Assembly: GCA_041653535.1 (NCBI GenBank)
Contig: JBAZFH010000005.1
Coordinates: forward strand, 12,012-76,011
From: Patescibacteria group bacterium
GTDB taxonomy: Bacteria; Patescibacteriota; Patescibacteriia; JACRDY01
Direction of reading: 5' to 3'
DNA length: 64,000 nucleotides
Shown one piece after another: positions 39,838 through 57,775 of the stretch (position 1 is the first letter of the stretch; each line of letters opens with the position of its first letter). A program made the translations under genes and the position numbers. The notes below the pieces were generated by a model, which saw only the letters and a program-made list of their open reading frames with translations, was not told where the DNA came from and did not search any database.

Positions 39838-39860
39838 AAAATACACACATAAGGAAACAC

Positions 39861-39914
<54 letters not shown>

Positions 39915-41339
39915 TTACACTTTACTTTTTCTCGTCAACACCACTATCGGAGTTCGGAGTAATATCCATAAATCAAGCAGTATACTCCAATTTTCAATAT
40001 AATACGTGTCTAATCTGACCTCCTCGTCAAAATCCAAATCCGACCGACCGGAAATCTGGGCAAGACCGGTAATCCCCGGCTTGATCGCTAACACCGCCTT
40101 ATGATGACGTTGATATTTTTCTACCTCACGCGGCTGATGCGGGCGCGGACCGACCAGACTCATATTACCAATTATCACGTTAATAATTTGAGGCAATTCA
40201 TCAAGACTGGTTTTTTCTAAAAACCGACCGACTCTGGTACGGCGAGGATCGTCGAGAACCTTGTAAACCGGACCTTGTCTTCGATTTTTTTCGGCAATCA
40301 ACTCTTTTTCGTATTCTTCGGCCTTGAGACTATCATAGCCCGGACCGGTGCAGTATTCTGTCTTCATCGAACGAAATTTGTAGGTATTAAAAACTCCTTC
40401 CCGACTCACTCGTTGGTTTTTATAAATCACCGGACCGCGTGAATCGATTTTTATCGCGATGCCAATGATAGCTAAAACCGGAAAAAGAACAGCTAACAAA
40501 AACAAAGCGAGAATAAAATCAAAAAATCTTTTGATAATCTTAGCCCAGCCATCCAGCGGAGTTTTGCGCAGCTCAATAATCGGCACGCCGGCAAGGGTGC
40601 TAATATCAACATTAGTTGCCTGAGCCTGAAATAAATCCGGAGCGTATTTGAAAGTCACATGATATTCGTCGCACCAGTCAACCAAATCAAGAATCTGTTC
40701 TTTAGGCAAATTTGGATCAACCTGCAAAACTTCGTCTAACTTTTTTTGCGCCAACAACTCCTGTACTGCTTTTTTTTCTTCTCCGTTAAACTGTTTAAAA
40801 ATCTTTACTACCCGTAACCCTATTGACGGCTTTTTTTCTATTTCTTGGCGAATCATTTCGGTTGTTTTGTCGCTGCCAAAAACAGCGATATAGTTTACGC
40901 CATAGCCGGCGGTAAAAAGAAATCTTTGCACTCCGCGAATCAATCCGCGACCGAAGCTAACTGTTAAAATACTTACCACCCAAACAGCAATAATAATAAA
41001 ACGGGAAGAAAATAATTCTTGTTTGCCAAAGAAAATAATCACGATCAACGTCAGTGTTGCCGTAGAGCAAGCGAGCAAGATACGGGAAAATTCGCCTAAA
41101 AATTTTCTCGATCCGGAAATTTTGTAGAGACCGGAAAACGCAAAAATTGCCAGCCAACAAACCGCCATCACCAAAACTATTTTGATGTACTGAGGAAAAG
41201 GCAAGGCGTAAATCACTGGACGAACATCAGTCAAAAAAGATTTGAACCGCAAAAAATATGCCAGCACTCCGGCTGCCACCACCATAAAATAATCAACCGG
41301 AACCAGCAAGGCACTGAACGTGAGTTCGGATTTTTTCAT
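39915..41339 (-). CDS. polyprenyl-phosphate sugar phosphotransferase (WbaP/EPS initiating bacterial sugar transferase)
   Basis: Multi-TM N-terminus and a C-terminal Bac_transf domain (DELPQIINVIIGNMSLVGPRP). Confidence 0.85.
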   Translation of the reverse strand: MKKSELTFSALLVPVDYFMVVAAGVLAYFLRFKSFLTDVRPVIYALPFPQYIKIVLVMAVCWLAIFAFSGLYKISGSRKFLGEFSRILLACSTATLTLIVIIFFGKQELFSSRFIIIAVWVVSILTVSFGRGLIRGVQRFLFTAGYGVNYIAVFGSDKTTEMIRQEIEKKPSIGLRVVKIFKQFNGEEKKAVQELLAQKKLDEVLQVDPNLPKEQILDLVDWCDEYHVTFKYAPDLFQAQATNVDISTLAGVPIIELRKTPLDGWAKIIKRFFDFILALFLLAVLFPVLAIIGIAIKIDSRGPVIYKNQRVSREGVFNTYKFRSMKTEYCTGPGYDSLKAEEYEKELIAEKNRRQGPVYKVLDDPRRTRVGRFLEKTSLDELPQIINVIIGNMSLVGPRPHQPREVEKYQRHHKAVLAIKPGITGLAQISGRSDLDFDEEVRLDTYYIENWSILLDLWILLRTPIVVLTRKSKV

Positions 41340-41729
41340 AAATTAGTAGCTAGTGGCTAGCGACTAGCAACTAGTGACTGGCGATTTTTACTGCCAGCTA
41401 CCAACTGCCAGCTACCATTTTCTGTCCCTATTCTATGTAAAATTTAGGTAAAAGTCAATTTAAAAAATTTTAGTTAGTGTAAAAAATGGGCTAATTTGAC
41501 ACATTTATCTTTATATTTTATATCAAAAAACGCTATTGACAAAGATTGTCTAACTTGGTAGGCTGCTATGATAAATAGAATTTTGACAATTAAAATAAAG
41601 AATTGAAAAATGGAGGTGAAAAAGATAGTAGTCTGGCTTATTTAGAGCCAAAACTTTGTTCGTGCGTGTTCTTACAATATGTTCAGTGTCCAACTCCAAC
41701 AACCCATTCATGTACAAGGAGAAAGAAAA

Positions 41730-42947
41730 ATGTCCGATGACACCAAGAAAACCGACGGAATCACCAATGTCGCCGCTGCCACCGCACCGACCTATCCGCC
41801 CGCTTGGACGGAACGCGTCGGCAAGTTCGCCGACCTCGTCGGCAAGAAACTCGAAGACGTGACCACCGCCCTGGCCGATGTCGCCGGCGCCGCCGGTGAT
41901 GACGCCCTGGCCGTGCTCGCGGACGAAGCGAGCTCGCCTTTCGACGATCTCAAGAACGCTCTCGCGTCCCTGAAGATCCCGTCCGGCGTCCTGCGCAAAA
42001 ACGTCGCGATCCTGCGCGGTCCCAAACCCGAAGCTCCCGCCGCCACTCCCGCCGCCGGCCCGTCTTTCGACGTGCTGCCGAGCGTGCCCGGTGACGACGC
42101 CAGTTTTCTCGAGCTGCTGAAAGTCGGCGGCATCCTGAAGATCGGCTCGACCGAGGTCATCTCGGCGATGAAGGCCGCCTTGGCCAATCGCCTCGACATG
42201 TTCAAGCTGCCGAAGAAAATCATGGAAGCCATGGAACGCTTCGCCGAAGACCAGGAAGAACCCTGCGGCGAAAGCTACTACAAGCTCCAGGATCTCGTCA
42301 CCCGTCGCAGCTACGCGGAAGTTTTGTCCGCCCTGGGCGTCAAGGGTCACCTGGTCAGCGAGAGCCGCAAGAACGAGCTCCTCGGCAAGACCGACCTGCT
42401 CTGGCCGGCCCTGCAGAGCTTCCACGAACAGCTGATCAACTGGCAGACCGCCTGGACTCAGGGCGCCAATCCGACCATGATGTTCGCGGCGATCGCGTCC
42501 ATGGCCAGCGGCGGCAACTCGATGATGCCTCCGGGAATGATGCAGCCCCCCGACACCGCCGGTCTCCGCGACGCGGCCGAAGGCGTGATCAACAAGATCA
42601 ACAAGGTCTTCGCCGGTCACGGCATTCCGATCGCGCGAGCGCTCGCCTATGACGCCACGCAGATTCGTGCCCTTCTCGAAGAGCCGACGCTGCCGACGCA
42701 CATGGGCGTCGCCAACCGCGAACAGATGATCAAGATGCTGGGCGTGTCTGTTTCCGCAGATCTGCTCCGCCTCGAACGCAACGTCTGCCGCTACGCGCTG
42801 GCGGTCATGGAACTGCCCAAGATCCCGTCCGGTCAAAGCGAATACGGCTACCTCGGCGCCATGATCCAGCTCGGTATCCAGATCCCCTGGGACACGCTGC
42901 TTTCCGGCTCCAGCGCCACCGCTCGCCCGGGTCGCAAACCCTTCTAA
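41730..42947 (+). CDS. hypothetical Ala-rich protein (406 aa), first gene of the GC-rich island
   Basis: Strong GC3 codon bias in this frame and an AAGGAGAAAG SD. The antisense 516-aa ORF (41550..43100) is an artefact of high GC. Terminator at 42971-43005. Confidence 0.6.
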   Translation: MSDDTKKTDGITNVAAATAPTYPPAWTERVGKFADLVGKKLEDVTTALADVAGAAGDDALAVLADEASSPFDDLKNALASLKIPSGVLRKNVAILRGPKPEAPAATPAAGPSFDVLPSVPGDDASFLELLKVGGILKIGSTEVISAMKAALANRLDMFKLPKKIMEAMERFAEDQEEPCGESYYKLQDLVTRRSYAEVLSALGVKGHLVSESRKNELLGKTDLLWPALQSFHEQLINWQTAWTQGANPTMMFAAIASMASGGNSMMPPGMMQPPDTAGLRDAAEGVINKINKVFAGHGIPIARALAYDATQIRALLEEPTLPTHMGVANREQMIKMLGVSVSADLLRLERNVCRYALAVMELPKIPSGQSEYGYLGAMIQLGIQIPWDTLLSGSSATARPGRKPF

Positions 42948-43036
42948 TTCCACCAACCTCATCAACCTAAAGGGCAGGGAGCAATGCTCCTTGCCCTTTT
43001 TTTTCGACAACCGCACAACTAAAAAAGGAGATATTA

Positions 43037-44068
43037 ATGAGCGGAAACAACTATAGCGACTATCGTAGTCGCGGTATCGCCTATAGCGGCTTTGCCTCAA
43101 GCGATGAGCGCGAAAGGAAAAAAGCAGAAAAACTGCGCGCCGAACGCGTCGAGAAAGCCAAGGAGACGGTGCACGAAAAAAGCACCAAGGCGCGCCCCAA
43201 ACGTGAAGACAACGCCGTCTATGACGACAAGCTGGTGCGCCTTGGCATCACCAAACCGAAACCCGGCGTCAAACGCGTCTACGTCATCTATATCGACAAC
43301 AGCGGCTCCAACCGAGTCATCGCCGCCCATTTGCGGAAAAGCTCGGCCTGGCTGCTGTCTCTTCTGAAGATGCTCGACCCGGAAGCGCAAATCGCTTTCG
43401 TCTATTTTTCCGACCACACCGACGGCAGTCAGTTCACGCAGGAAGTCGATTTCGTCTCCCCCGACGAAGAGGGCGACAAGATCATGTTCTCGACGATTTC
43501 CCATATCAGCGCCGCCAACGGTTTCGATGTGCCGGAAGCGCACGAATGCGCGCTCAAAGCCGCTTGCGAGATCAACTTCGGCGGCGCGGTCGAAAAGCAT
43601 CTGATCATGATCAGCGACGTCGTTGGCCATGGCATGGGCATGCCCTTTGATGACGGTTGCCCGGCTCAGCAAAGCTGGAAAAAATCCGTCGAGCTGGTCG
43701 CCAAGACCTACGACACTTTCCATTTCATCGGCTGCGGCGACGATGCCGAGGTCTGTGAGTTGCAGCAGCAGTTCATCTCTGACCCGAAACGAGTCCCCTG
43801 GGATCTGATCGACCTGTCGATGGTCAAAGACGAGCAGCACCGCATGCGCATCACCGGCAACGCCATCATGTTCCTCATTGCCCGCCAACTCGGTCGGCAA
43901 GCCATGGAAATGTTCCTCGGCTTCCTCTACGAGAAATGGCTCGACGATCCGATTTTTGGCGAAGCTACCGACGCGCGCGCCCAGGAAATGATTCGACGCT
44001 TCACCAAATATCTGGAATGGCCGGAAACCGAAATCGAAGACATGCTCAAGAAAGTCTTCGTCCAATAA
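43037..44068 (+). CDS. von Willebrand factor A (vWA) domain protein, TerY-like
   Basis: MIDAS-like IYIDNSGSN (DxSxS) after a basic N-terminal region. AAAGGAG SD. Terminator at 44085-44122. Confidence 0.6.
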   Translation: MSGNNYSDYRSRGIAYSGFASSDERERKKAEKLRAERVEKAKETVHEKSTKARPKREDNAVYDDKLVRLGITKPKPGVKRVYVIYIDNSGSNRVIAAHLRKSSAWLLSLLKMLDPEAQIAFVYFSDHTDGSQFTQEVDFVSPDEEGDKIMFSTISHISAANGFDVPEAHECALKAACEINFGGAVEKHLIMISDVVGHGMGMPFDDGCPAQQSWKKSVELVAKTYDTFHFIGCGDDAEVCELQQQFISDPKRVPWDLIDLSMVKDEQHRMRITGNAIMFLIARQLGRQAMEMFLGFLYEKWLDDPIFGEATDARAQEMIRRFTKYLEWPETEIEDMLKKVFVQ

Positions 44069-44143: not shown

Positions 44144-46426
44144 ATGAGTGACCGCCAGTTGCTTACTCGACTCCTCGCTGCGACCAAAAAAGGTGGCGGA
44201 CTGGAGTCTTTGCGCGACGCGCTGGAACAAATTGTTTTTGCCGACGAAGCAGAAAAAAACCACGCCACCAAACTAGTGGCTGTCGCCCACCTTACTGCCT
44301 TTCACGCGCAACCGCAAGAACTGGTCCACGCCATCCCGCTGCTAGCAAAAATCAACGACTGGGAAACGCTGCAAACGATCCTAAAAATCGGTCACGACTA
44401 TGGTCGGCTCGACCTGGTACAAAGCATCGACCAAATTGGTCGGCAAAAAAATCTGCCGGCGTTACAAGTTACGGACTTTGCCGAGTGGATGCAAAATTTT
44501 TCCATCTACTGGATTGACCTGTGTTATGACAAAAAAAACAATCTGGTTTTTGTCGATCTGCAGTACGAAAAGATTCTACGGCAAACAATCGCCGAAAACT
44601 TTGAGCCGCCGCTTTTCTGGTCTAATGTACTACTGCAGCTGGACCTGCAAAAACATTTGTCCCCCGAAAGAAAAATAATCTTGGCCAAATTGGCCGCAGG
44701 GCAAAACCCCGTCTGCCGGCCATTCACCGAACATCGACAAAATGTCTATAAGCGATTTGGCGAGTATTGCGAAAACAACGACTTGGAAATTGTTAAAACT
44801 TTGCAAGTCGGTATCGAAAGCTCTCGTCGCTGCAGCTACGTTTATCTGGTTCGCGACACTGACGGTATCATGAAGGTCTACAAAGAAATTCTTGACTACC
44901 GCCGCGGTCCGTTGGCCGAAAGCTACGACAGCGAAGACGAACTCTATGAAACGATTGGTCAAAACGATTTTCTGCCGGCGTACCTTGCCACGGTAATCGT
45001 CGATAAAGATTTACGCTTTGCCAAATTGGAATTCCAGTACGCTCAAAGTCTGGCTGACTATCTGCGCGACGGCGAACCGCTGGAAAAAAATCTGGCGATC
45101 CGCATCATGCTGCAGCTAGCCAAAAACCTGAAACGACTCCATCGGCGCAATATCATTTTCCTGGATCTCAAACCGGAAAACGTGGCGCTGACGGATCAAG
45201 ACGTTAAGCTTTTTGACCTGGGTGTTTCCCGCCAAATTAAATCGACGGATAAAATCAACGCTTTTCTCGCCGATCCGCGCTATGGCACGCCAGAAACCGG
45301 TCTGGAACTAACAGCGTCTACCGCTTCGGACGTGTTCCAGCTGGGAATAATTTTCCACCAACTGTTGACCGGTTATCACCCGTTTGCTTTTGAAGGAACG
45401 ACCGACAATCGGGAAGAACAAATCTTGCGCTACTTCTGGCCAACAGTGGTTCTTCCCTACGAGCACGATCTGGCAGTAAAACTACGAGACGATCGGCTGA
45501 AAATCATCAACGCGATGTTGGACAAAAATCCGGCGCTGCGCCCCGGTCTTGAACAAATAATCGCAACGCTAGAAGAAGGAGAACAAACCGCCGTCACAAC
45601 CCAAGCAGCACAGAGAAAAGACACCAGACTAGAAGAAAACAATACAGTGCTTTTCCCGGCACGCATGGGTATTCCCCATAAAGGACACATCGAGTACATC
45701 TCACGGCTGTTGCAACTAGGATTTCACGTTACGATTTCCTTGCAGCGCAGCTACACTATCACTGACCGCGATCCGTTACCTAAATGGCTAGTAGCCAAAA
45801 TGGTAGCTAGATCCCTACTCGATCGTGGATTTACACCCGATGACTTCGATTTTATTTTCACACCGCTGTACAAAGAACGTCGAGAGATGGAAATCCATTT
45901 TGCGATGCTGCCGTCGGCGGAAAATATTGTCGCTGTTGCTTCTAGCAATCTGAGCGTCCACGATCTTTTTTCGCGATACGCCATCTTTGATCAAAAAACG
46001 GTCTTTGGTAGCGCTGGCGAGGAATTCGAAGATCGTTCGTGGGGAGAGATCATTCGCGGAGCAGTAAAAAACAACGACTACCAAAAATTTTCCGAGTATG
46101 CGGCCAGCGGCGTAGAAAAAATCTTGCCGTTGGACCAAATCCGAAAAATCTACGGCAGTCCAAATATCGAATTCGTCAGCGGATCAGTCAATCTGGTTTT
46201 GCTCGACGAAAACGACCAAGAAATCGCTTCCGGAAGAGCTTTCCGTTTCGTTGGACCAGAAATAAGTCTGCTGCGCCATTTAGTGCGTGCTGGACATGAG
46301 GTCGAGTTAATCGATCCTTACGCCAATGACACGCTCGTCAAAATCGACGGACAGACCAAACATCTGAAATACCTCCGGACCGAATTTTCGGCCGGAAATG
46401 AATTCATTTATTTCCAAAGCGTCTAG
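44144..46426 (+). CDS. multidomain protein: N-terminal unknown domain + Hanks-type Ser/Thr protein kinase domain + C-terminal HxGH nucleotidyltransferase (cytidylyltransferase-like) domain
   Basis: Kinase catalytic loop IIFLDLKPENVAL, DLG (KLFDLGVS), GTPE. C-terminus FPARMGIPHKGHIEYI is the (T/H)xGH nucleotidyltransferase signature. Confidence 0.65.
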   Translation: MSDRQLLTRLLAATKKGGGLESLRDALEQIVFADEAEKNHATKLVAVAHLTAFHAQPQELVHAIPLLAKINDWETLQTILKIGHDYGRLDLVQSIDQIGRQKNLPALQVTDFAEWMQNFSIYWIDLCYDKKNNLVFVDLQYEKILRQTIAENFEPPLFWSNVLLQLDLQKHLSPERKIILAKLAAGQNPVCRPFTEHRQNVYKRFGEYCENNDLEIVKTLQVGIESSRRCSYVYLVRDTDGIMKVYKEILDYRRGPLAESYDSEDELYETIGQNDFLPAYLATVIVDKDLRFAKLEFQYAQSLADYLRDGEPLEKNLAIRIMLQLAKNLKRLHRRNIIFLDLKPENVALTDQDVKLFDLGVSRQIKSTDKINAFLADPRYGTPETGLELTASTASDVFQLGIIFHQLLTGYHPFAFEGTTDNREEQILRYFWPTVVLPYEHDLAVKLRDDRLKIINAMLDKNPALRPGLEQIIATLEEGEQTAVTTQAAQRKDTRLEENNTVLFPARMGIPHKGHIEYISRLLQLGFHVTISLQRSYTITDRDPLPKWLVAKMVARSLLDRGFTPDDFDFIFTPLYKERREMEIHFAMLPSAENIVAVASSNLSVHDLFSRYAIFDQKTVFGSAGEEFEDRSWGEIIRGAVKNNDYQKFSEYAASGVEKILPLDQIRKIYGSPNIEFVSGSVNLVLLDENDQEIASGRAFRFVGPEISLLRHLVRAGHEVELIDPYANDTLVKIDGQTKHLKYLRTEFSAGNEFIYFQSV

Positions 46427-46483
46427 AACAAAAACTAGGCGCTTTTTTATTTAAACAGCTTAGTGCACAGTGCTTAAATAGAT

Positions 46484-46690
46484 TGGCGGGGGTTCAGGGG
46501 CGGAAGCCGCGCCGAGCCCCGCCCCGTTTCGGTAATTATGGTCTGCAGGGGCGGGGCGGGGTAAGGGAACCTTAAGGTGATAAGGACAAGCGCTTGCTTC
46601 CAGCCCCCGGAACTTTTTGCTTACTTTTTGGTTACAAAAAGTAAGTGCCCGCCCCTGCCTACCGGCAGGCAGGCGGCATGAGGGCAAGCC
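46484..46690 (+). repeat. GC-rich roughly 210-bp structured element, copy 1 of 2 (about 90% identical to 57572-57775)
   Basis: Contains the conserved hairpins cttactttttgg-ttac-aaaaagtaag and cctgcc-NNNN-ggcagg, and the ggggcggggcgggg tract. Confidence 0.8.
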
Positions 46691-46844
46691 ATGAGTTAAT
46701 TTTATATTACAACCAAATATAAACTACTTGGCAAATCATTTAAAAAACTACACTAAGTGACTAAAATGCTTGACTATTTAGCTGTTTTTGATAAGATATA
46801 ATGTCTAGAATTTTGACAATACAAAAAAATCAAAGGAGACAAAA

Positions 46845-47468
46845 ATGGGTACTACTTTGACCATAGATTATCCCAATGGACTCAAAAATATTCTGACGGC
46901 AATGACTTACTACAGCAAACCGGCGTTGATCGCTATTGCCGGATGTAGCTGCAGCGGAAAAAGCTTTCTCGCTAAAGCTTTGAACGAAGCGTCTCCCGCA
47001 ACAATACTGCCGTTGGATAATTTTTTCCGTGATATTGACGATCCTGCGCTACCGCGCGATAAAAACAACAGACATCTTTTCGAAGCTCCTGAATCCTATT
47101 GGAAAGATCAGTACTTAGCTGCAGCGGTGGCTTTACTGACCGGCAAAACAGTTATTCTGCCAACTTACGATCTGGCAACTAACAAAAGATTGCCTACGAC
47201 CGGACAAACAGTGTCGCCGAACACAACTATTGTCGCAGAAGGACTCTACGCTATCACTTTTTTGTCCGCGCTGTCCGCGCCAGTACTCAAAGTCTTTCTG
47301 GATACCGATCTGGAAATCTGCCTGAATCGACGCATCGCGCGCGATGTGCCGAGATGGAACATCACCGCGGAAAAAGTACGAGAAATATTTTTTGCCAAAG
47401 TGCTTCCCTATTATCAAATGTTCATTGCTAAACAAAAAAGTTTGGCTGATATAGTCATCAAAGAATAA
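46845..47468 (+). CDS. P-loop nucleoside/nucleotide kinase, uridine kinase/phosphoribulokinase (PRK) family-like
   Basis: Walker A IAIAGCSCSGKSFLAKAL. PLDNFF, ILPTYDLATNKR, IVAEGLYAI and DTDLEICLNRRIARD parallel Udk motifs. Confidence 0.65.
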   Translation: MGTTLTIDYPNGLKNILTAMTYYSKPALIAIAGCSCSGKSFLAKALNEASPATILPLDNFFRDIDDPALPRDKNNRHLFEAPESYWKDQYLAAAVALLTGKTVILPTYDLATNKRLPTTGQTVSPNTTIVAEGLYAITFLSALSAPVLKVFLDTDLEICLNRRIARDVPRWNITAEKVREIFFAKVLPYYQMFIAKQKSLADIVIKE

Positions 47469-47489: not shown

Positions 47490-48602
47490 ATGGACATTGA
47501 CCTGCAAAGGGTATACGACATTATTTTTGGCTCGGTGCGAGCTGAAGACGTATTTGGCGATCTTATTGATCGTCAAAACAAAACGTCCAAAGAACAGTTG
47601 TTGGAAGCCGTTTACGCCGACCTGGCCGCAATCGTTGATCCAAAAAAGTACACCTATCCGGATGACCGAGAATTTGCCGCTGATGCCCAGTTCAAACTGA
47701 AAACTTTCTACGAGAAAGCCAAGGAAAAACTGGCCAGCGGATTCTATGGCGCGACCGCCAATCCCAGTATCCATGTCTCTCGCGGACGACCAGCTTTTGC
47801 AACCGAAAAAAGATCGTACTACCTTGGTCAACCAATCGCCGAAGGCGACATAGCCACCATTTATGTTGGCGACTGCGTCATGGGCGATGACTTTGCTGGC
47901 CGCGTGGCGATTAAAATCGTCAACGATCCGGCTGACAACGACCTGGCCCGCAACGAGATCCGGGCTCTGACCGAGCTGCACTCCAAAAAAGGCGCTCAAC
48001 GCAAACATCTGCCGATACTGCTCGACAATTTTTTGACTGAAGACGACCAAGTTGGTTTGGTGTTTCGATTCTTAGACGATAGCTACGATCTGCTGGCCGT
48101 TAAGGAAAAATATCCTCGCGGCGTTGATCGCAAGCATATGGTCTGGATGCTCAACCGGCTACTGTCTGCTGCTGGCTATGCCCACAACTGGGGCATGGTC
48201 CACGCTAACATCGAGCCGAGCAACCTGATGGTTCGTCCACAAAACCACAATCTGTTCATGATCGACTGGACCAGTGCGGTGATCCGACCGGCCGAAACCG
48301 GCGACACTTTCAAAGTCTACAACCCTGAATTTAGCGCGCCGGAAGTCAAAGAAGGAGGTCCTGCAACACCAGCTTCGGACTTATATTCGATTGGCAAGTG
48401 CATGATCTATATCCTCGGCGGCAATGTCGAAGACAATACCATGCCCGACACAGTCGAAGAAGAACTCCAACGCTTTATCCATTTCCTGGTTTTGGAAAGT
48501 CAGGGTGGACGAGCGCAAGATGCCTGGAAAATGCATCATAAACTCATCTCTTTAGTCGAAGGACTTTGGGGACCAAGAAAATTTCTGGTCTTCAGCATGT
48601 AA
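47490..48602 (+). CDS. protein-kinase-like protein with degenerate catalytic loop (HAN in place of HRD)
   Basis: VAIK present (RVAIKIV). HANIEPSNLMV replaces HRDLKPEN. DWT replaces DFG. SAPE and DLYSIGKCMIY are conserved. Confidence 0.55.
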   Translation: MDIDLQRVYDIIFGSVRAEDVFGDLIDRQNKTSKEQLLEAVYADLAAIVDPKKYTYPDDREFAADAQFKLKTFYEKAKEKLASGFYGATANPSIHVSRGRPAFATEKRSYYLGQPIAEGDIATIYVGDCVMGDDFAGRVAIKIVNDPADNDLARNEIRALTELHSKKGAQRKHLPILLDNFLTEDDQVGLVFRFLDDSYDLLAVKEKYPRGVDRKHMVWMLNRLLSAAGYAHNWGMVHANIEPSNLMVRPQNHNLFMIDWTSAVIRPAETGDTFKVYNPEFSAPEVKEGGPATPASDLYSIGKCMIYILGGNVEDNTMPDTVEEELQRFIHFLVLESQGGRAQDAWKMHHKLISLVEGLWGPRKFLVFSM

Positions 48603-48638: not shown

Positions 48639-50117
48639 ATGGGTGGAGGCGGTGATCATTATGAACGCGACGTAGACATGAATGCGCGCCGACGGCAGGT
48701 CGAACAACATTTCGAGCAAGTAACCAAACCCAAGCCGCCGGAAGAACGCAAAGTCGCGGCAACTCTTGATCCCAAAAAGATCGAAAAGTTGGTCAGCGAC
48801 GACAGCGAAGAATACCCCGAAACAACTTCAATCGCCGTGATTATGGATCTGACCAGATCGCGCGGCAAGGACCTGATCGACATCTTGACCAAGATGCCGC
48901 TGCTGATGGGTCAAGTCATGCTGGAAGGCTACGTGCGTAATCCGGCCATCAGTTTTTGCGGTGTTGGCGACGCCACTGACGGCGACGCCGCTCCTCTGCA
49001 AGTCGGTCAGTTTGAAACCGACGACCTGATCGACAGAGTCTTGCAAGCGATGTGGCCCGAAGGTGGCGGTGGTGGCAGCGGGCAAGAATCCTACCAGCTG
49101 GCGGCGTACATGTACGCCATCAAAGCCGAGCTCGCTTCGCTCAAAAAGCGCAACCAGAAAGGCTACCTTTTTATAATCGGTGATGAGGGTTTCTACCCGA
49201 AAGTTTCGAAAGACGAAGTTAAACGCGTCATCGGCGCCTCCATTCCCAAAGACATTCCTTCGGCGGAAATTTTCCGACTGCTCCAAGAAAAATTCAACGT
49301 CTTCTTTATCTACCCGGCCAAGTCCTGGGAGGAACGCAAAGAAGACATCGACGAAGAAATCGCCGCCCGTGTCCGCAAGGCCGGCGGTATGATCGAAGGT
49401 GTCGATATACGATTCTCGCTAGCCTGGTCCAATCGCAACGATCTGGATTTGCACGTCATCGATCCCGACGGCTTCGAGATCTACTACGGCAGCAAGGTTT
49501 CCCGCAGCGGCGGCATGCTCGATGTCGACATGAACGTCCACGGCGAGACCACCAAGCCAGTCGAAAACACCCGCTGGGCCAAAGGCAAAGCGCCCAAAGG
49601 CACGTATCGAGTCTTTGTCCGAAACTACGGCTTCCACGAAAACACCCGCGCCGCTACGCCATTCCGAGTCGAAATCGAAATCGGCGGTGAGGTAGAGCAC
49701 TTCGAAGGCAAGACTCCGGCCAACTCCTCCGGTGCAGGTAGTGATGTCGAGGTCGGAACCTTTACCTTCGATCCCCAGAAGGTCAGAGCAAAAGACGGCG
49801 ATGAAAAATACGCCGGCTACAGAGACAATGTTGTGTTGACTCAGTGGGGCAGCGTGATCCCGCAGGAAAACATTCTGCGGTTAAAAAACCCCAAAGCCAT
49901 CGTCGACGCGATGCTCGGCGTACTGGCTATTTGCAGCGGTAGCCGCACGTTGCCGGCCTACCTGCAAGACATGAAAAACCGCGGTCAGACAGTCACGCGA
50001 ATCAAAGAAATTGAAACTTCGCTTGACGGACTGGCTCAAGTCGCGAACACACCGAAAGTGACAATCCGCAGCACCGGCGGCGGCAAGACTCGCAAGAGCG
50101 GCGCTACCCGAATCTAG
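48639..50117 (+). CDS. vWA domain protein with Gly-rich linker and C-terminal beta-rich domain of unknown function
   Basis: MIDAS-like AVIMDLTRSRG (DxTxS). GGGGGSG linker. C-terminal ...LHVIDPDGFEIYYG...MLDVDMNVHG.... Confidence 0.6.
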   Translation: MGGGGDHYERDVDMNARRRQVEQHFEQVTKPKPPEERKVAATLDPKKIEKLVSDDSEEYPETTSIAVIMDLTRSRGKDLIDILTKMPLLMGQVMLEGYVRNPAISFCGVGDATDGDAAPLQVGQFETDDLIDRVLQAMWPEGGGGGSGQESYQLAAYMYAIKAELASLKKRNQKGYLFIIGDEGFYPKVSKDEVKRVIGASIPKDIPSAEIFRLLQEKFNVFFIYPAKSWEERKEDIDEEIAARVRKAGGMIEGVDIRFSLAWSNRNDLDLHVIDPDGFEIYYGSKVSRSGGMLDVDMNVHGETTKPVENTRWAKGKAPKGTYRVFVRNYGFHENTRAATPFRVEIEIGGEVEHFEGKTPANSSGAGSDVEVGTFTFDPQKVRAKDGDEKYAGYRDNVVLTQWGSVIPQENILRLKNPKAIVDAMLGVLAICSGSRTLPAYLQDMKNRGQTVTRIKEIETSLDGLAQVANTPKVTIRSTGGGKTRKSGATRI

Positions 50118-50585: not shown

Positions 50586-50650
50586 ATTGTTTTTATCGTT
50601 TATCCAGATAATACCAAAATCAATATTAAATCTTTCTAAAATCTCCCCGG

Positions 50651-50677
50651 CCTCCTGTCTCCCGCCTCCTGTCTCCT
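50651..50677. repeat. (CTCCTGT)-type heptamer repeat, 3 units, inverted relative to 50187-50212
   Basis: cctcctgtctcccgcctcctgtctcct. Confidence 0.7.
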
Positions 50678-50758
50678 ATATATTGACTTTTTCCCTTTTC
50701 ATTGCTAAATTAACATGTCGAACCTTTACAATAAAACAGTCAAAAAGGAGATGTACCC

Positions 50759-51724
50759 ATGACTATGTGGATTGCGACTTTACCGCCGATTCATCGGCGT
50801 GAGTTGCTGGAAAAAATCATCAACCATCCCATGATCGGTGGCGTCCGCTACAACAGCGGCTATGCCTCCGGCTCCAACCCTGAAGACACCCTGATAACCA
50901 TTATCGAACTAATCCGCGCCGCGGGTAAAAAGCTTTGGATTGACCTGAAAGGTCGTCAACTGCGCATCGACAGATGGGCGACTCCTGATTACGGCAAAAT
51001 CGTACTCAACCATGAAGTTGAAATTTATGGTCAGGCATTTGTCCTTTTTCGCGGAGAATCCGATTTGTCCGAAATCGTCAAGGCAAACGGTCGCGTAATC
51101 TACGTTGATCCGCCACCGAAGTATGCTGTCGGTCAAAGCCAAGCAATCAACGTCGCCGGCGACATCCGTATTAAAGGTTTTTTAACCAACACGGATATTG
51201 CCTATGTCAAAGCGGCTGTGAAATTAGGTAATCCTTATTTCATGCTGTCATTCGTCGAACAGTGTTCGGACTGGCAGCAAGTGAAAAGCTTGATCATGTC
51301 CAGTTCCGGATATTCACCGGAACAGGAATATGAGCTCGTTCTCAAAATCGAATCGACTAAAGGCTGGGACTATGCCAGCCGGTCGATTAATCTGGGAACA
51401 CTCGCCAAAGAGCGCCTGCGACTGATGGCAGCACGCGACGACCTAATGATAAACATCGGATCAACTAAGTCAAAGATTCTCAAAGCGACGCAAGAATTGA
51501 TAAACATCGACCGCAGTGCCATCGCCGCCTCCCGACTTTTCGCCAACGTGGAAAAAGACGGCAAGGCGTCACTCGGCGATTTTGCTGACTTGCATTTGCT
51601 TTACGGCATGGGATACCGACACTTCATGATATCAGATGGCGTTTGTCTTCATCACTTCGATGAAGCGATAGCGGCGGCTAATGACTATTACACCGAATAT
51701 CCGCAGCATCTCACCCTGGAATGA
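50759..51724 (+). CDS. PEP/pyruvate-binding TIM-barrel superfamily protein (pyruvate-kinase-barrel/HpcH-HpaI-like)
   Basis: LKIESTKGWDYASRSI and LMAARDDLMINIG parallel the pyruvate kinase motifs KIEnqEG and MVARGDLGiEi. Moderate GC (about 50%). Confidence 0.5.
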   Translation: MTMWIATLPPIHRRELLEKIINHPMIGGVRYNSGYASGSNPEDTLITIIELIRAAGKKLWIDLKGRQLRIDRWATPDYGKIVLNHEVEIYGQAFVLFRGESDLSEIVKANGRVIYVDPPPKYAVGQSQAINVAGDIRIKGFLTNTDIAYVKAAVKLGNPYFMLSFVEQCSDWQQVKSLIMSSSGYSPEQEYELVLKIESTKGWDYASRSINLGTLAKERLRLMAARDDLMINIGSTKSKILKATQELINIDRSAIAASRLFANVEKDGKASLGDFADLHLLYGMGYRHFMISDGVCLHHFDEAIAAANDYYTEYPQHLTLE

Positions 51725-51736
51725 CAAGGAGAAAAA

Positions 51737-53125
51737 ATGGCTCCGACAATCTATATTGTCACCGATCTAACGTTTGGAGACGGGGGCAAAGGAACGATCG
51801 TCGACGCCCTCGCCCGACATACGGGGATAAAAAACATCGTCCGTTTCAACGGCGGGTCGCAAGCAGCGCATAACGTGATAACACCTCAAGGGTTGCATCA
51901 TTGCTTCGCCCAATTTGGCTCCGGCATGCTTTTGCCAGACACTCACACTATTGTTTCTCGCTATATGCTCATTAACCCTAGCAGCATGCTTGTTGAAAAT
52001 TCAGCGTTGCAAAACAAAGGCGTAACAAGCGCCATGGCACGAACTTTTATCAGTGAAAACAGCGCCATTATCACGCCTTGGCACGAACTAATCAACCAAA
52101 TGCGCGAAATCGCCCGCGGTAACAATCGTCACGGCAGCTGCGGCAAGGGAGTATGGGAAGCCACTTGTGATTTGAATTATTCAAGTCGAATAACACTGTT
52201 TGCCAAAAATTTGGATAAAATCGATTTGATCAAAGAAAAAATCGGTTTCATCCAACAGATGAAGCTCGATATTGCCGAGCAACTGTATGACCAAAATCCT
52301 GCTTACCGCGAACAACTTTTTCCTTTGCTGGAGAAGGTTCGTTGGGCGGATCAGGAAAAAATCGCCGAAAGCTACCAAGCTTTTTTCAAACAAGCAAAAA
52401 TCGTTACCGACGATTTTATCTTGGAAAAAATCTGTCGGCAAGGTGCGATATTCGAAGGCGCTCAAGGAGTATTACTGGATGCCGACTACGGTTTTCATCC
52501 GTACGTCACCAGCAGCAATACCACGATGATCAATGCCGAAGAGATGCTGAAGCAAGCTGGCATTTCACCGCAAAGGCAAACGGTCCGTATCGGTGTAATG
52601 CGCGGTTATATGACGCGTCACGGTGCCGGACCGCTCGTTACTGAAGACCAAGCACTGCACAATTTCGTCCCGCCCGATCACAACGAATGGAATGACTGGC
52701 AGCAAGACTTTCGTCTCGGCTGGTTTGATCTTATAGCGACCAAATACGCGCTTAGCGTAGCCGGTAAAATCGATGCGCTGGCCATCACCAATCTTGATCG
52801 TATGGCAAAAATCCCGCTGGTCAAAGTTGCACTATTCTATCGTGGCAAAGAAGTTCGCCCCGATCTCTTCATTAGTAATGGTGAAGATGTGATAGTACAA
52901 ATAAGGAAACCGGCACTGCCTCAGCAAAATGAAAACAACGCCCTGACCAACGCCTTGTTCGCAGCTGAGCCGGTTTATTTTTCCGATCATCTTTGGACCG
53001 GAAAAAATATCGCCGACCGATACGTCGACCCCGGTTACATAAAATTTTTGGAAGAAAGACTCGGTGTCCCGGTAAAAATTTTGTCTTTTGGCCCCACCGC
53101 CAAGGACAAGCTATTCTATCCCTAA
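51737..53125 (+). CDS. adenylosuccinate synthetase (PurA)-family protein, divergent
   Basis: N-terminal P-loop TFGDGGKGTIVDALA (PurA has GDEGKGK) and RFNGGSQAAHNV (PurA has GGHNAGHT); length 462 aa. Atypical substitutions suggest a paralogous function. Confidence 0.65.
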   Translation: MAPTIYIVTDLTFGDGGKGTIVDALARHTGIKNIVRFNGGSQAAHNVITPQGLHHCFAQFGSGMLLPDTHTIVSRYMLINPSSMLVENSALQNKGVTSAMARTFISENSAIITPWHELINQMREIARGNNRHGSCGKGVWEATCDLNYSSRITLFAKNLDKIDLIKEKIGFIQQMKLDIAEQLYDQNPAYREQLFPLLEKVRWADQEKIAESYQAFFKQAKIVTDDFILEKICRQGAIFEGAQGVLLDADYGFHPYVTSSNTTMINAEEMLKQAGISPQRQTVRIGVMRGYMTRHGAGPLVTEDQALHNFVPPDHNEWNDWQQDFRLGWFDLIATKYALSVAGKIDALAITNLDRMAKIPLVKVALFYRGKEVRPDLFISNGEDVIVQIRKPALPQQNENNALTNALFAAEPVYFSDHLWTGKNIADRYVDPGYIKFLEERLGVPVKILSFGPTAKDKLFYP

Positions 53126-53390: not shown

Positions 53391-54058
53391 AGCTTAAGTA
53401 AGCAAGATGACCGCCCCCCACTTTCTATGTTTTATGTCTACATTTTAAAAAGCCAAAAAGACGACAAGCTTTATATTGGCTTTACTAGTGACTTAAAACG
53501 CAGATTTCAGGAACACCAAAATAAAGAGAATAAATCGACAAAAAACAGAACTCCTTTTATTTTGGTCTACTACGAATCCTATCGTTCAAAATCAGACGCG
53601 ATGAAACGGGAGAAAAATTTAAAACAGTTTAAAAACAGCTACTCTCATCTAAAAAAGCGTCTTGGCGATAGCCTTAAAACATAGAAAATGGGGGGAGGAA
53701 AGTCCGAACACCCCTCTGGCTGTAAAGCTAGAGTGACAAAGAGAGTCGCTAACGGCGACCGGGAGTAATCCTAGGGAAAGTGTCACAGAGACAATACTAT
53801 CCCCCACATATTATGTGGGGGACAAAGGTGAAAAGAGAAAAGGTGTATTTTTAGAAAATCATATGATTTCTAAAGACTGCTACTTTTCTTCCTCTTGGGC
53901 GACCAAGATGTGATGGTAAACCCTCTCTGGTGCAAGAGCCAATTTGGTTGCTCGCTTGATCCTGTCAGCAATGGCAGGACTAGATAGATGGTCATCCTCC
54001 CTCACATAATTTATGTGGGGGATGACAGAATTCGGCTTACCAGCTTGCTTAAGCAATA
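53391..54058 (+). ncRNA. rnpB: RNase P RNA (bacterial) with a roughly 270-nt insertion in P3 that encodes a GIY-YIG protein
   Basis: P4 5' strand GGAGGAAAGTCCG at 53695-53707. GGGAAAGTGTCACAGAGA (P10/11 region). 3' ACAGAATTCGGCTTA...CTTGCTTAAGC pairs with the 5' GCTTAAGTAAGCAAG as P1. Terminator at 54059-54093. Confidence 0.7.
53427..53684 (+). CDS. GIY-YIG domain protein (UPF0213-like, 85 aa) encoded within the P3 helix insertion of rnpB
   Basis: MFYVYILKSQKDDKLYIGFTSDLKRRFQEH is a GIY-YIG motif. The start codon sits in the 5' strand, and the stop codon in the 3' strand, of a 13-bp extended P3 stem (tttctatgtttta/taaaacatagaaa). Confidence 0.7.
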   Translation: MFYVYILKSQKDDKLYIGFTSDLKRRFQEHQNKENKSTKNRTPFILVYYESYRSKSDAMKREKNLKQFKNSYSHLKKRLGDSLKT

Positions 54059-56375: not shown

Positions 56376-56400
56376 ATGTTTTAATTTTAGCTTTAATTCC

Positions 56401-56580
56401 TCCCCCTGCCAAGGGGGAGATGTCGCGAAGCGACAGAGGGGGTGAATGCGACTCCCTGCCAAGGGGGAGATGTCGCGAAGCGACAGAGGGGGTGAATGCG
56501 ACTCCCTGCCAAGGGGGAGATGTCGCGAAGCGACAGAGGGGGTGAATGCGACTCCCTGCCAAGGGGGAGTCGCTTCCTGT
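56401..56580. repeat. 50-bp GC-rich tandem repeat, 3.6 copies, in the trpS 5' leader
   Basis: Unit tccctgccaagggggagatgtcgcgaagcgacagagggggtgaatgcgac. Contains hairpins ctccc-tgccaag-gggag and gtcgc-gaa-gcgac. Sits between the T-box terminator and the trpS SD. Confidence 0.85.
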
Positions 56581-57441: not shown

Positions 57442-57571
57442 CAGTCAACAAAACCCCGTTCTACATGAATGGGGTTTTATCTTTCAAATTTAGCTGGTGG
57501 TAATTTTACTAAATAAACTACCACCAGCTAAGGCTTTAATCTTATTTCAAAAAATATTAAGTTGTTAAAAT

Positions 57572-57775
57572 GTCGGGGGTCCGGGGGCGTAAGCTGCGCC
57601 GAGCCCCGACCCGTTTCGGTAATTATGGTCTGCAGGGGCGGGGCGGGGTAAGGAAACCTTAAGATGATAAGGACACGCGCTTGCTTCCAGCCCCCGGAAC
57701 TTTTTGCTTACTTTTTGGTTACAAAAAGTAAGTGCCTGCCCCTGCCCGCCGGCAGGCAGGCGGCATGAGGGCGAA
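57572..57775 (+). repeat. GC-rich roughly 210-bp structured element, copy 2 of 2
   Basis: About 90% identical to 46484-46690. Followed by the terminator ccccgctcactcgaaacgggg + TTATTTTT at 57790-57818. Confidence 0.8.

Follow-up and report, generated by a model that had tools for sequence, protein, structure and literature searches.

What might a bacterium gain from joining a protein kinase of the Hanks type to a domain that transfers adenylyl groups? This question is raised by a gene of a Patescibacteria group bacterium (assembly GCA_041653535.1), which lies in the stretch of 64,000 nucleotides analysed here and referred to below as the window (contig JBAZFH010000005.1, positions 12,012 to 76,011). 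The encoded protein unites known parts in an undescribed combination, i.e., a Hanks-type kinase, partnered by a von Willebrand factor A (vWA) protein that is encoded next to it, and a re-specialised adenylyltransferase derived from NadM; no account of such a kinase-NadM architecture was found in the literature searched. The domain identities are nearly certain. As to function, the reading that we tentatively favour, at a probability of roughly 0.45, is that the fusion protein is a vWA-partnered signalling enzyme, which couples protein phosphorylation to adenylyl transfer onto an acceptor other than nicotinamide mononucleotide (NMN).

Domain identities of the fusion protein

The gene at 44144..46426 (+) is one open reading frame (ORF) of 760 amino acids (aa), which starts with ATG and contains no internal stop. 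An initial annotation, made from the DNA letters, had described a single protein composed of an N-terminal domain without known identity, a Hanks-type kinase and a C-terminal HxGH nucleotidyltransferase (NTase). Both the uninterrupted frame and this order of domains are borne out, and every motif quoted at the time is in place: FLDLKPEN at aa 339-346, with F-L instead of the H-R of the HRD motif, DLG at 358-360, GTPE at 381-384, and GIPHKGHIEYI at 509-519. A full HMMER scan of 1.84 billion representative proteins, from which 79 full-length relatives were aligned, showed that the fusion recurs in about 100 clusters at 50% identity with an identical, colinear domain order throughout; a word-indexed search gave just 10 full-length relatives, far below the exhaustive scan. 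Of 28 non-redundant genomic loci, counting the window, 27 furthermore carry the fusion. With the uninterrupted ORF and the colinear architecture in these clusters and loci, a frameshift joining two separate genes, which had been named as a possible objection, is excluded. The more general idea of an artefact, in which a sequencing error joined two genes or an HxGH motif arose by chance in the tail of a kinase, would agree with a C-terminal part of 283 aa that is blank in Pfam; it is refuted by the continuous architecture in about 100 independent clusters and in 27 loci from different assemblies, and by profile, profile-profile and fold evidence, all of which is significant.

Two peptide patterns located 24 loci among 185,579 species genomes (one per GTDB species), with host labels of Falkowbacteria, Uhrbacteria, Saccharibacteria, Shapirobacteria, Minisyncoccota and unclassified Patescibacteria. 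The family is limited to Patescibacteria and patchy within this group; a few metagenome-assembled genomes (MAGs) that bear the fusion carry the submitter label Gammaproteobacteria. A Bacteroidales-labelled MAG (locus L033, 9519-10759) contains a kinase-NTase copy of 32-37% identity; its matches are split over several pieces, and upstream of it no vWA partner was detected. A misassembly, a pseudogene or a contaminant contig could each account for this copy. The fusion was not found in 50,697 phage records, which gave generic kinase matches only, and a phage-borne fusion was therefore dropped as a candidate.

The nature of the C-terminal part emerged only through family profiles and structure. 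In Pfam, the last 283 aa are blank at E ≤ 10, PF01467 (CTP_transf_like) included; a phmmer search of PDB sequences was blank as well, PHROG was uninformative, and TIGR00125 matched aa 502-533 below threshold (E 0.0035, 17.5 bits vs. a cut-off of 27.7). When a profile of aa 496-760 was run against the PDB, the archaeal NMN adenylyltransferases (NMNATs) 1ej2, 4yp5 and 1m8j ranked 2-4 of five matches at E ≤ 10, in register and at a non-significant E of 0.6-1.0, after an unrelated fimbrial fusion (E 0.1). Against the 1.84 billion proteins, the profile recovered 98 sequences at E < 1e-30, essentially all of them kinase plus NTase, and a separate outgroup at E 3.7e-17 to 1e-4, whose Pfam composition of CTP_transf_like and NUDIX is the architecture of NadM. 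Profile-profile alignment of aa 496-760 with this outgroup (hhalign) extends over 246 columns (99.8%, E 3.9e-29). The Rossmann-like NTase fold, which had been proposed as the decisive check, is predicted by an AlphaFold2 model of the C-terminal half (pLDDT 84.6, pTM 0.84), for which Foldseek matched the NadM structures 2qjo, 2r5w and 2qjt and archaeal NMNATs such as 1hyb, 1ej2 and 1f9a at E 2.4e-8 to 5.9e-5, with TM scores of 0.63-0.76 when normalised to the single-domain archaeal NMNAT targets. The Foldseek probability is 1.00 for NMNAT, NadM, CoaD and ATP sulfurylase, but CoaD and ATP sulfurylase match at E 7e-4 and above, CoaD being 3-4 orders of magnitude weaker than NadM/NMNAT; the best viral matches of the domain are phage NadM-like proteins. 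The initial assignment to the HxGH nucleotidyltransferases thus stands, whereas the proposed kinship to NadD, CoaD and FAD synthetase gives way to NadM and archaeal NMNAT. Descent of the NTase domain from a NadM-type bifunctional NMN adenylyltransferase/ADP-ribose pyrophosphatase is nearly certain.

The protein ends in a tail of about 85 aa, modelled as a beta-beta-alpha-beta4 unit packed against the NTase and also found as free proteins of 75-101 aa. The hhalign alignment mentioned above extends into the Nudix domain of the outgroup, and a profile of the tail alone matched the Nudix halves of the outgroup (78.6%, E 1.7e-5) in the region of the Nudix box, with GRVxRYxxPExSLxxHL aligned to GGGIDxYESPxDAxxRExxEETG. 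The Glu and Arg positions of the box (GX5EX7REUXEEXGU) are variable in the tail, which is probably, with moderate confidence, a shortened and catalytically dead Nudix remnant. If so, the whole C-terminal half would descend from an NTase-Nudix protein of the NadM type.

At the other end, a helical domain of approximately residues 1-215, shortened or missing in some relatives, has no Pfam match at E ≤ 10, and searches of the isolated part against PDB sequences and PHROG were uninformative. The kinase that follows matches Pkinase (PF00069) over aa 284-474 with 101.6 bits (cut-off 31.7; E 6.5e-29), while its N-lobe (aa ~216-283) is too divergent for this profile, yet aligns inside the family. The catalytic residues are near-invariant among the 79 aligned relatives, on which all counts below are based (residue numbers are those of the 760-aa protein): the beta3 lysine K247 is found in 78/79, the alphaC glutamate E264, the catalytic aspartate D341 and D358 of DFG in 79/79 each, and the catalytic-loop asparagine N346 in 74/79. 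Similar values were obtained for the APE motif (P383 79/79, E384 78/79) and for the subdomain-XI arginine R466 (78/79); the alpha-F aspartate D396 is kept in 61/79. Position 340, the arginine of HRD, is leucine in 59/79 and arginine in only 4/79. Since the catalytic residues are near-invariant, the HRD arginine is rare and the glycine loop is degenerate, the kinase reads as non-RD but otherwise catalytically complete.

Active sites and the chemistry they suggest

To place the catalytic residues of the NTase, the register from Methanothermobacter thermoautotrophicum NMNAT to the fusion protein was taken from profile and hhalign alignments. R11 corresponds to R507, H16 to H512, H19 to H515, N105 of the SGNP motif to N602, and R136 to R638; the matched PDB entries are mutants of exactly R11, H19 and R136. 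The conservation of catalytic residues, which had been suggested as a check, holds for the NTase as it does for K247, E264, D341 and D358 of the kinase (each ≥78/79): R507, H512, G514, H515, N602 and R638 of the ATP site are each kept in at least 78 of the 79 relatives. Within HxGH and its surroundings, P511 is kept in at least 78/79, H512 and G514 in 79/79, and H515 in 78/79. The ISxTxxR-like motif is present as a variant, S632-W-G634-x-x-x-R638, with G634 and R638 in 79/79, where R638 aligns with the invariant R135/R136 of NadM/NMNAT.

A different picture is obtained on the acceptor side. In the NadM-type outgroup, D80, W87 and S39 are invariant and G38 is nearly so; from archaeal NMNAT structures, D80, W87 and G38-S39 are residues that we take to line the nicotinamide/NMN site. 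Their equivalents in the fusion family are F/Y/L575, M/H/L582 and Q534-[R/K]535, never Asp or Trp in any of the 79 relatives. In addition, the family has conserved a surface of its own, comprising S536-Y-T538-I-T540, P546-K547-W548 and H585-F586. Judged from these residues, the pattern appears to be one of AMP-donor chemistry that is kept and an acceptor that has changed, rather than one of decay. The combination of a retained ATP site and the loss of the residues that define the NMN-using relatives points to a novel adenylylated product or modification.

The resulting hypothesis is that the NadM-derived domain still adenylylates a phosphate-bearing acceptor from ATP, that this acceptor would no longer be NMN itself but most likely a nucleotide-like small molecule, and that fusion to the kinase might couple adenylyl transfer to Ser/Thr phosphorylation, in either direction. 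The vWA protein could serve as a peptide- or ligand-binding partner, or as a substrate, of the kinase, and the protein as a whole might act as a signalling or regulatory node for its recurrent neighbours, i.e., genes for an adenylosuccinate synthetase (AdSS)-like enzyme, a pyruvate-kinase (PK)-barrel-like protein, a nucleoside kinase, and NadE-NadD. The earlier suggestion of a kinase that is regulated by, or regulates, the nucleotidylation of a small molecule is plausible within this frame. The fusion of HIGH-type NTases to a partner of the same pathway has precedents in NadM (NTase and Nudix) and NadR (NTase and P-loop kinase) (PMC9503650).

Several points weigh against this hypothesis. The role of D80 and W87 as a nicotinamide pocket is presumptive, the tools showing invariance in the outgroup and loss in the fusion family. 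The neighbours from nucleotide metabolism occur in just 4-10 of 28 loci and are not obligatory, and patchiness within Patescibacteria is as compatible with an accessory or conflict role as with a metabolic one. The glycine-rich loop of the kinase (positions 222-229) is variable and not a canonical GxGxxG. APE and GHI features mark protein kinases rather than small-molecule kinases, and by its APE motif, alpha-F aspartate and R466 the kinase here appears to be of the former kind; these hallmarks imply that the logic of RibF and NadR, in which a kinase makes a phosphate that the NTase then adenylylates, is inapplicable to a small molecule in this case. Finally, strict conservation of an ATP site would be equally expected of a mere nucleotide sensor.

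Such a sensor, in which the NadM-derived domain is non-catalytic, binds ATP, NAD, ADP-ribose or a related nucleotide and thereby gates the kinase allosterically, seems rather unlikely to us. The loss of both the outgroup-invariant D80 and W87 and the catalytic residues of Nudix would be in line with it, as would the finding that tail and NTase are confidently modelled as a single unit (pTM 0.84); in NadR, NAD sensing for the repressor function is attributed to the NMNAT domain. However, mere binding rarely demands such near-invariance of H512, H515, R507, N602 and R638 (each in ≥78 of the 79 divergent relatives), and the newly conserved acceptor-side surface (Q534, Y537, T538, T540, K547, H585, F586) looks like re-specialisation.

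The protein-kinase hallmarks lead to another possibility, namely that the two domains act in sequence: the kinase would phosphorylate a Ser/Thr of the vWA partner, of the neighbouring g422 protein or of itself, and the NTase would adenylylate this phosphate to a pyrophosphate-linked protein-O-ADP. The order of events in NadR and RibF would thereby be carried over to a protein kinase. In the known adenylyltransferases of the HIGH family, ATP is attacked by an oxygen from a phosphate or sulfate on the acceptor, the acceptor-side residues of the outgroup are replaced, and the vWA protein with which the fusion is obligately paired is of a peptide-binding type. An ADP-ribosylglycohydrolase gene that adjoins the fusion downstream in one locus (L001) would also suit such a modification, but is confined to this single lineage. 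No enzyme of the HIGH superfamily is known to use a protein as acceptor, and the data do not indicate two active sites that face each other. Sequential action on a protein is thus highly improbable, and the coupling of phosphorylation to adenylyl transfer onto a non-NMN acceptor is retained as the preferred reading.

The vWA partner and the gene neighbourhood

Gene context was counted over the 28 non-redundant loci by tblastn of the window cluster proteins against all loci and by clustering of ORFs of at least 100 aa. Besides the fusion (27 loci), the recurrent families are the 343-aa vWA protein (24), g422 (17), a 370-aa and a 492-aa protein (10 each), the AdSS-like (8) and PK-barrel-like (6) proteins, and a nucleoside kinase of the PRK type (4). 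No other family recurred among these ORFs, a PP2C phosphatase included, and no PP2C match in Pfam was found among the neighbours scanned. The features of the window are compiled in the table.

Table 1. Features of the fusion gene and its neighbourhood, in window positions
Feature	Position	Strand	Basis
g422, conserved hypothetical protein	41679..42947	+	17/28 loci, usually directly upstream of vWA gene
Partner: 343-aa vWA protein, MIDAS D87-N-S-G-S91, D164, D194, and C-terminal helical bundle	43037..44068	+	synteny, AlphaFold2, Foldseek
Fusion gene: N-terminal domain, Ser/Thr kinase, NadM-like adenylyltransferase, Nudix-remnant tail	44144..46426	+	ORF list; relatives
N-terminal domain, fold not assigned, aa 1-215	44144..44788	+	aligns only within family
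Hanks-type protein kinase domain, aa ~216-480, non-RD	44789..45583	+	Pfam PF00069, E 6.5e-29
Catalytic loop FLDLKPEN, aa 339-346	45158..45181	+	read from sequence
NadM/archaeal-NMNAT-like HIGH-superfamily nucleotidyltransferase, aa ~500-675	45641..46168	+	AlphaFold2, Foldseek, hhalign
HxGH motif H512-K-G-H515	45677..45688	+	conservation; in register with H16/H19 of M. thermoautotrophicum NMNAT
C-terminal alpha/beta tail, aa 679-760, probably a Nudix remnant without catalysis	46178..46423	+	hhalign vs. outgroup Nudix
Terminator-like hairpin at end of fusion gene	46416..46445	+	11-bp stem followed by T run
PRK/uridine-kinase-like P-loop nucleoside kinase	46845..47468	+	Pfam PRK, E 9e-20; 4 loci
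370-aa kinase-like protein, probable pseudokinase, phrog_3043	47490..48602	+	adjoins in 10 loci
492-aa protein, vWA-like by eye, phrog_2971 N-terminal half and phrog_1735 middle	48639..50117	+	adjoins in 10 loci
PK-barrel-like protein, sub-threshold	50759..51724	+	Pfam PK, E 1.5e-5, 24.7 bits vs. cut-off 30; 6 loci
Divergent AdSS-family enzyme	51737..53125	+	Pfam, E 2.6e-68; 8 loci

Every one of the 24 intact loci has the 343-aa gene directly upstream of the fusion. This pairing is complete because the loci that have the fusion without the 343-aa gene are three contigs that end just upstream and a fourth, L033, with the fragmentary copy only. The partner family counts at least 79 members. Searches with the 343-aa protein gave no match in Pfam or PADLOC, a profile of the family gave none among PDB sequences, and the orthologs reach only E 0.11 to VWA_2, but an AlphaFold2 model based on 33 sequences (pLDDT 89.9) has top Foldseek matches that are all vWA domains: SpaC, TFIIH p44, CMG2, integrin beta-I, vWF A3, Ku80 and Rpn10. 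The residues of the metal ion-dependent adhesion site (MIDAS), D87-x-S89-x-S91, D164 and D194, are invariant in these 33 sequences. The fusion gene is accordingly half of an obligate two-gene operon with a MIDAS vWA protein. Hairpins that resemble terminators stand behind the g422, fusion, 492-aa and AdSS-like genes, and none lies between the vWA gene and the fusion; this placement is suggestive of four units: [g422], [vWA-fusion], [PRK-like, kinase-like, 492-aa] and [PK-like, AdSS-like].

The g422 gene has a strong terminator of its own at 42969-42999. Its family comprises at least 284 homologs from the candidate phyla radiation (CPR) at E ≤ 1e-3, none of them annotated, and the 120 that are listed are 46-59% identical; the protein has no Pfam domain and no PADLOC match. 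In the NCBI record, g422 starts at M18 (405 aa), and neighbouring proteins of the window are public as 'hypothetical protein WC310_05165/05170'. The genes upstream in L001 and L004 were considered as diverged g422 and dropped, as they encode unrelated membrane proteins. A motif with TAGAATTTTGACAAT lies upstream of both g422 (41567-41599) and the PRK-like gene (46797-46829), and also at 41458-41488 and 46738-46768; the motif may be a common promoter or operator of the two units.

Downstream of the fusion, the PRK-like protein scores 103 bits against the NCBIfam model of uridine kinase, below its cut-off of 180. The 370-aa protein has HANIEPSN in place of HRDxKxxN, with Asn for the catalytic Asp, and gp251 of Mycobacterium phage Colt, 33% identical to it, has HGAITPDN; by these motifs, the phrog_3043 kinase-like family probably consists of pseudokinases or atypical kinases. 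The N-terminal ~90 aa of the 370-aa protein look J-domain-like by eye, with DPKK for HPD. Homologs of the 492-aa protein occur in 666 phage records. The AdSS-like protein scores 197 bits against PurA (cut-off 402) and 53 against PurZ (cut-off 300), and by eye it carries GDGGKG where canonical PurA has GDEGKG; such a divergent enzyme may be no standard adenylosuccinate synthetase. A module of kinase-like, vWA-like (phrog_2971, with or without phrog_1735) and AdSS-like genes lies beside the fusion in 10 CPR loci. Mycobacterium phage Colt (L007, 2691-6161) encodes homologs of all three with the gene order unchanged, and homologs of the 492-aa and AdSS-like genes are adjacent in Vibrio phage Va1 (L008, 4917-6999); no account of the phage trio of kinase, vWA-like and PurA-like genes was found in the literature searched. 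That the two vWA/kinase pairs of the window might be recent paralogues was considered and dropped: the 343-aa and 492-aa proteins share no significant similarity, and that between the fusion and the 370-aa protein is merely generic for kinases.

The fusion also has neighbours from NAD metabolism. An 815-aa fusion of the NadE-NadD type lies directly upstream of the cluster in three loci (L010, 3379-5823; L011, 3401-5851; L006, 157-846, partial), and a NadD-like gene lies downstream in L018; the ADP-ribosylglycohydrolase gene of L001 can be counted with them. The loci with the NadE (glutamine-dependent NAD synthetase)-NadD fusion belong to Falkowbacteria-like genomes, and these associations with NAD and nucleotide genes are lineage-limited. 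NadE and NadD were looked for within the window, and neither is there. The neighbours bear on the idea that the fused domain serves housekeeping NAD salvage as the NMN adenylyltransferase of the organism, with the PRK-like protein as nicotinamide-riboside kinase and the fused kinase as regulator. NadM/NMNAT are indeed the best structural and profile matches, a nucleoside kinase follows downstream in 4 loci, and NAD genes are adjacent in 4 loci. However, the outgroup-invariant D80 and W87 are kept in 0/79 relatives, and a canonical NadD-type adenylyltransferase beside the cluster in L010, L011, L006 and L018 would make a second NMNAT superfluous in those genomes, which argues against a housekeeping NMNAT. 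The family is moreover patchy (24 loci in the species genomes searched), and the PRK-like gene is missing from most loci. A housekeeping role is therefore very unlikely.

A vWA gene next to a Ser/Thr kinase gene also raises the possibility of a conflict system, i.e., a TerY-P-like defence or counter-defence cassette with the NTase as effector or signal generator, which would be compatible with any of the biochemical models. The pair corresponds to the core of the TerY-P triad, and some triads defend against phage (PMC11090510). In PADLOC, the kinase scores best against mad6 and PD-T4-6, both defence kinases, homologs of the adjoining module occur in phages Colt and Va1, the distribution is patchy, and the GC content at third codon positions (GC3) of the cluster is far above that of its flanks. 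On the other hand, PP2C is not recurrent in the 28 loci, neither the vWA protein nor g422 has a PADLOC match, and the PADLOC matches of the kinase cover the generic core only. The fusion is missing from the phage records, and the flanks (TruB, IF2, RNase Y, TsaD) are housekeeping genes, not defence islands. A conflict cassette thus appears unlikely as the biological role.

GC3 is 0.80 for g422, 0.73 for the vWA gene and 0.66 for the 492-aa gene, compared to ~0.40 for the flanking genes; horizontal transfer or expression-linked codon bias could each account for this anomaly. The high GC3 also gives rise to a spurious antisense ORF of 516 aa at 41550-43100 (-), and the stretch around these genes looks GC-richer than its flanks in other loci as well, e.g., L001 and L006. 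A GC-rich repeat of 207 nt occurs in AT-rich intergenic DNA in two copies of 93% identity (46479-46685 and 57566-57772), the first just past the fusion terminator; it has a very stable predicted fold on either strand (z ~-4.8) and no match in Rfam, in which no riboswitch was found in the cluster either. Between the 492-aa and PK-like genes, the window genome alone has an inserted gene for a 23S-rRNA-intervening-sequence protein (PF05635; 50220-50585 (-), GC 0.36). Elsewhere in the window, a full-length bacterial RNase P RNA of class A lies at 53654-54055 (+) (164 bits), three tandem repeats with a period of 50 nt and hairpin-forming GGGGGAG/CTCCCC cores at 56395-56569, and runs of the heptamer TCTCCTG at two intergenic sites (39851-39937 and 50630-50702).

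Significance and relation to known systems

The genomes of Patescibacteria are tiny, and nucleotides and cofactors have to come from hosts; despite this economy a gene of 2.3 kb with a dedicated vWA partner is retained in about 100 clusters. In it, two well-studied enzyme families are joined in a manner for which the literature searched gives no account. Knowing the acceptor would either bring to light a new protein modification or add a new nucleotide signal or cofactor to those of episymbiotic bacteria, and would also give a function to two large hypothetical families, the vWA partner (at least 79 members) and g422 (at least 284). If sequential action on a protein were true after all, this would imply an undescribed post-translational mark and an undescribed use of a HIGH-superfamily nucleotidyltransferase. 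The pseudokinase, vWA-like and AdSS-like genes, which are common to large phages, constitute a second uncharacterised module.

Among known systems, NadM and archaeal NMNAT share with the fusion protein the Rossmann-like HIGH fold, the ATP-site residues, the SGNP-like motif (S-G/S-N602-P) and the RDP motif, and NadM also has the NTase-then-Nudix order of the C-terminal half. They differ in that D80, W87 and G38-S39 are replaced in the fusion, where the Nudix part is shortened to ~85 aa without the box glutamates and the whole is fused behind a protein kinase. In RibF, HldE, CoA synthase and PAPS synthase, a HIGH-superfamily NTase is fused to a small-molecule kinase of the same pathway and of unrelated fold, whereas the kinase of the fusion is eukaryotic-like, with APE and GHI subdomain residues.

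NadR, composed of a helix-turn-helix (HTH) domain, an NMNAT and a P-loop ribosylnicotinamide kinase (PMC9503650), is a regulatory protein in which an archaeal-type NMNAT-like domain is likewise joined to a kinase. However, the kinase of NadR is a C-terminal, small-molecule P-loop enzyme, while the Hanks-type kinase of the fusion stands N-terminal to the NTase; the 760-aa protein has no HTH or P-loop kinase domain, and a PRK-like kinase is encoded by a separate gene in 4 loci.

The TerY-P triad consists of a TerY-like vWA protein, a PP2C phosphatase and a Ser/Thr kinase with a C-terminal zinc ribbon or OB fold (PMC11090510). The fusion loci differ from it in that PP2C is not recurrent, the vWA partner matches no PADLOC model, and the C-terminus of the kinase is an NTase with a Nudix remnant instead of a zinc ribbon or OB fold. 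In both, the gene for a Ser/Thr kinase with an accessory domain at its C-terminus adjoins that of a cytoplasmic vWA protein with a MIDAS.

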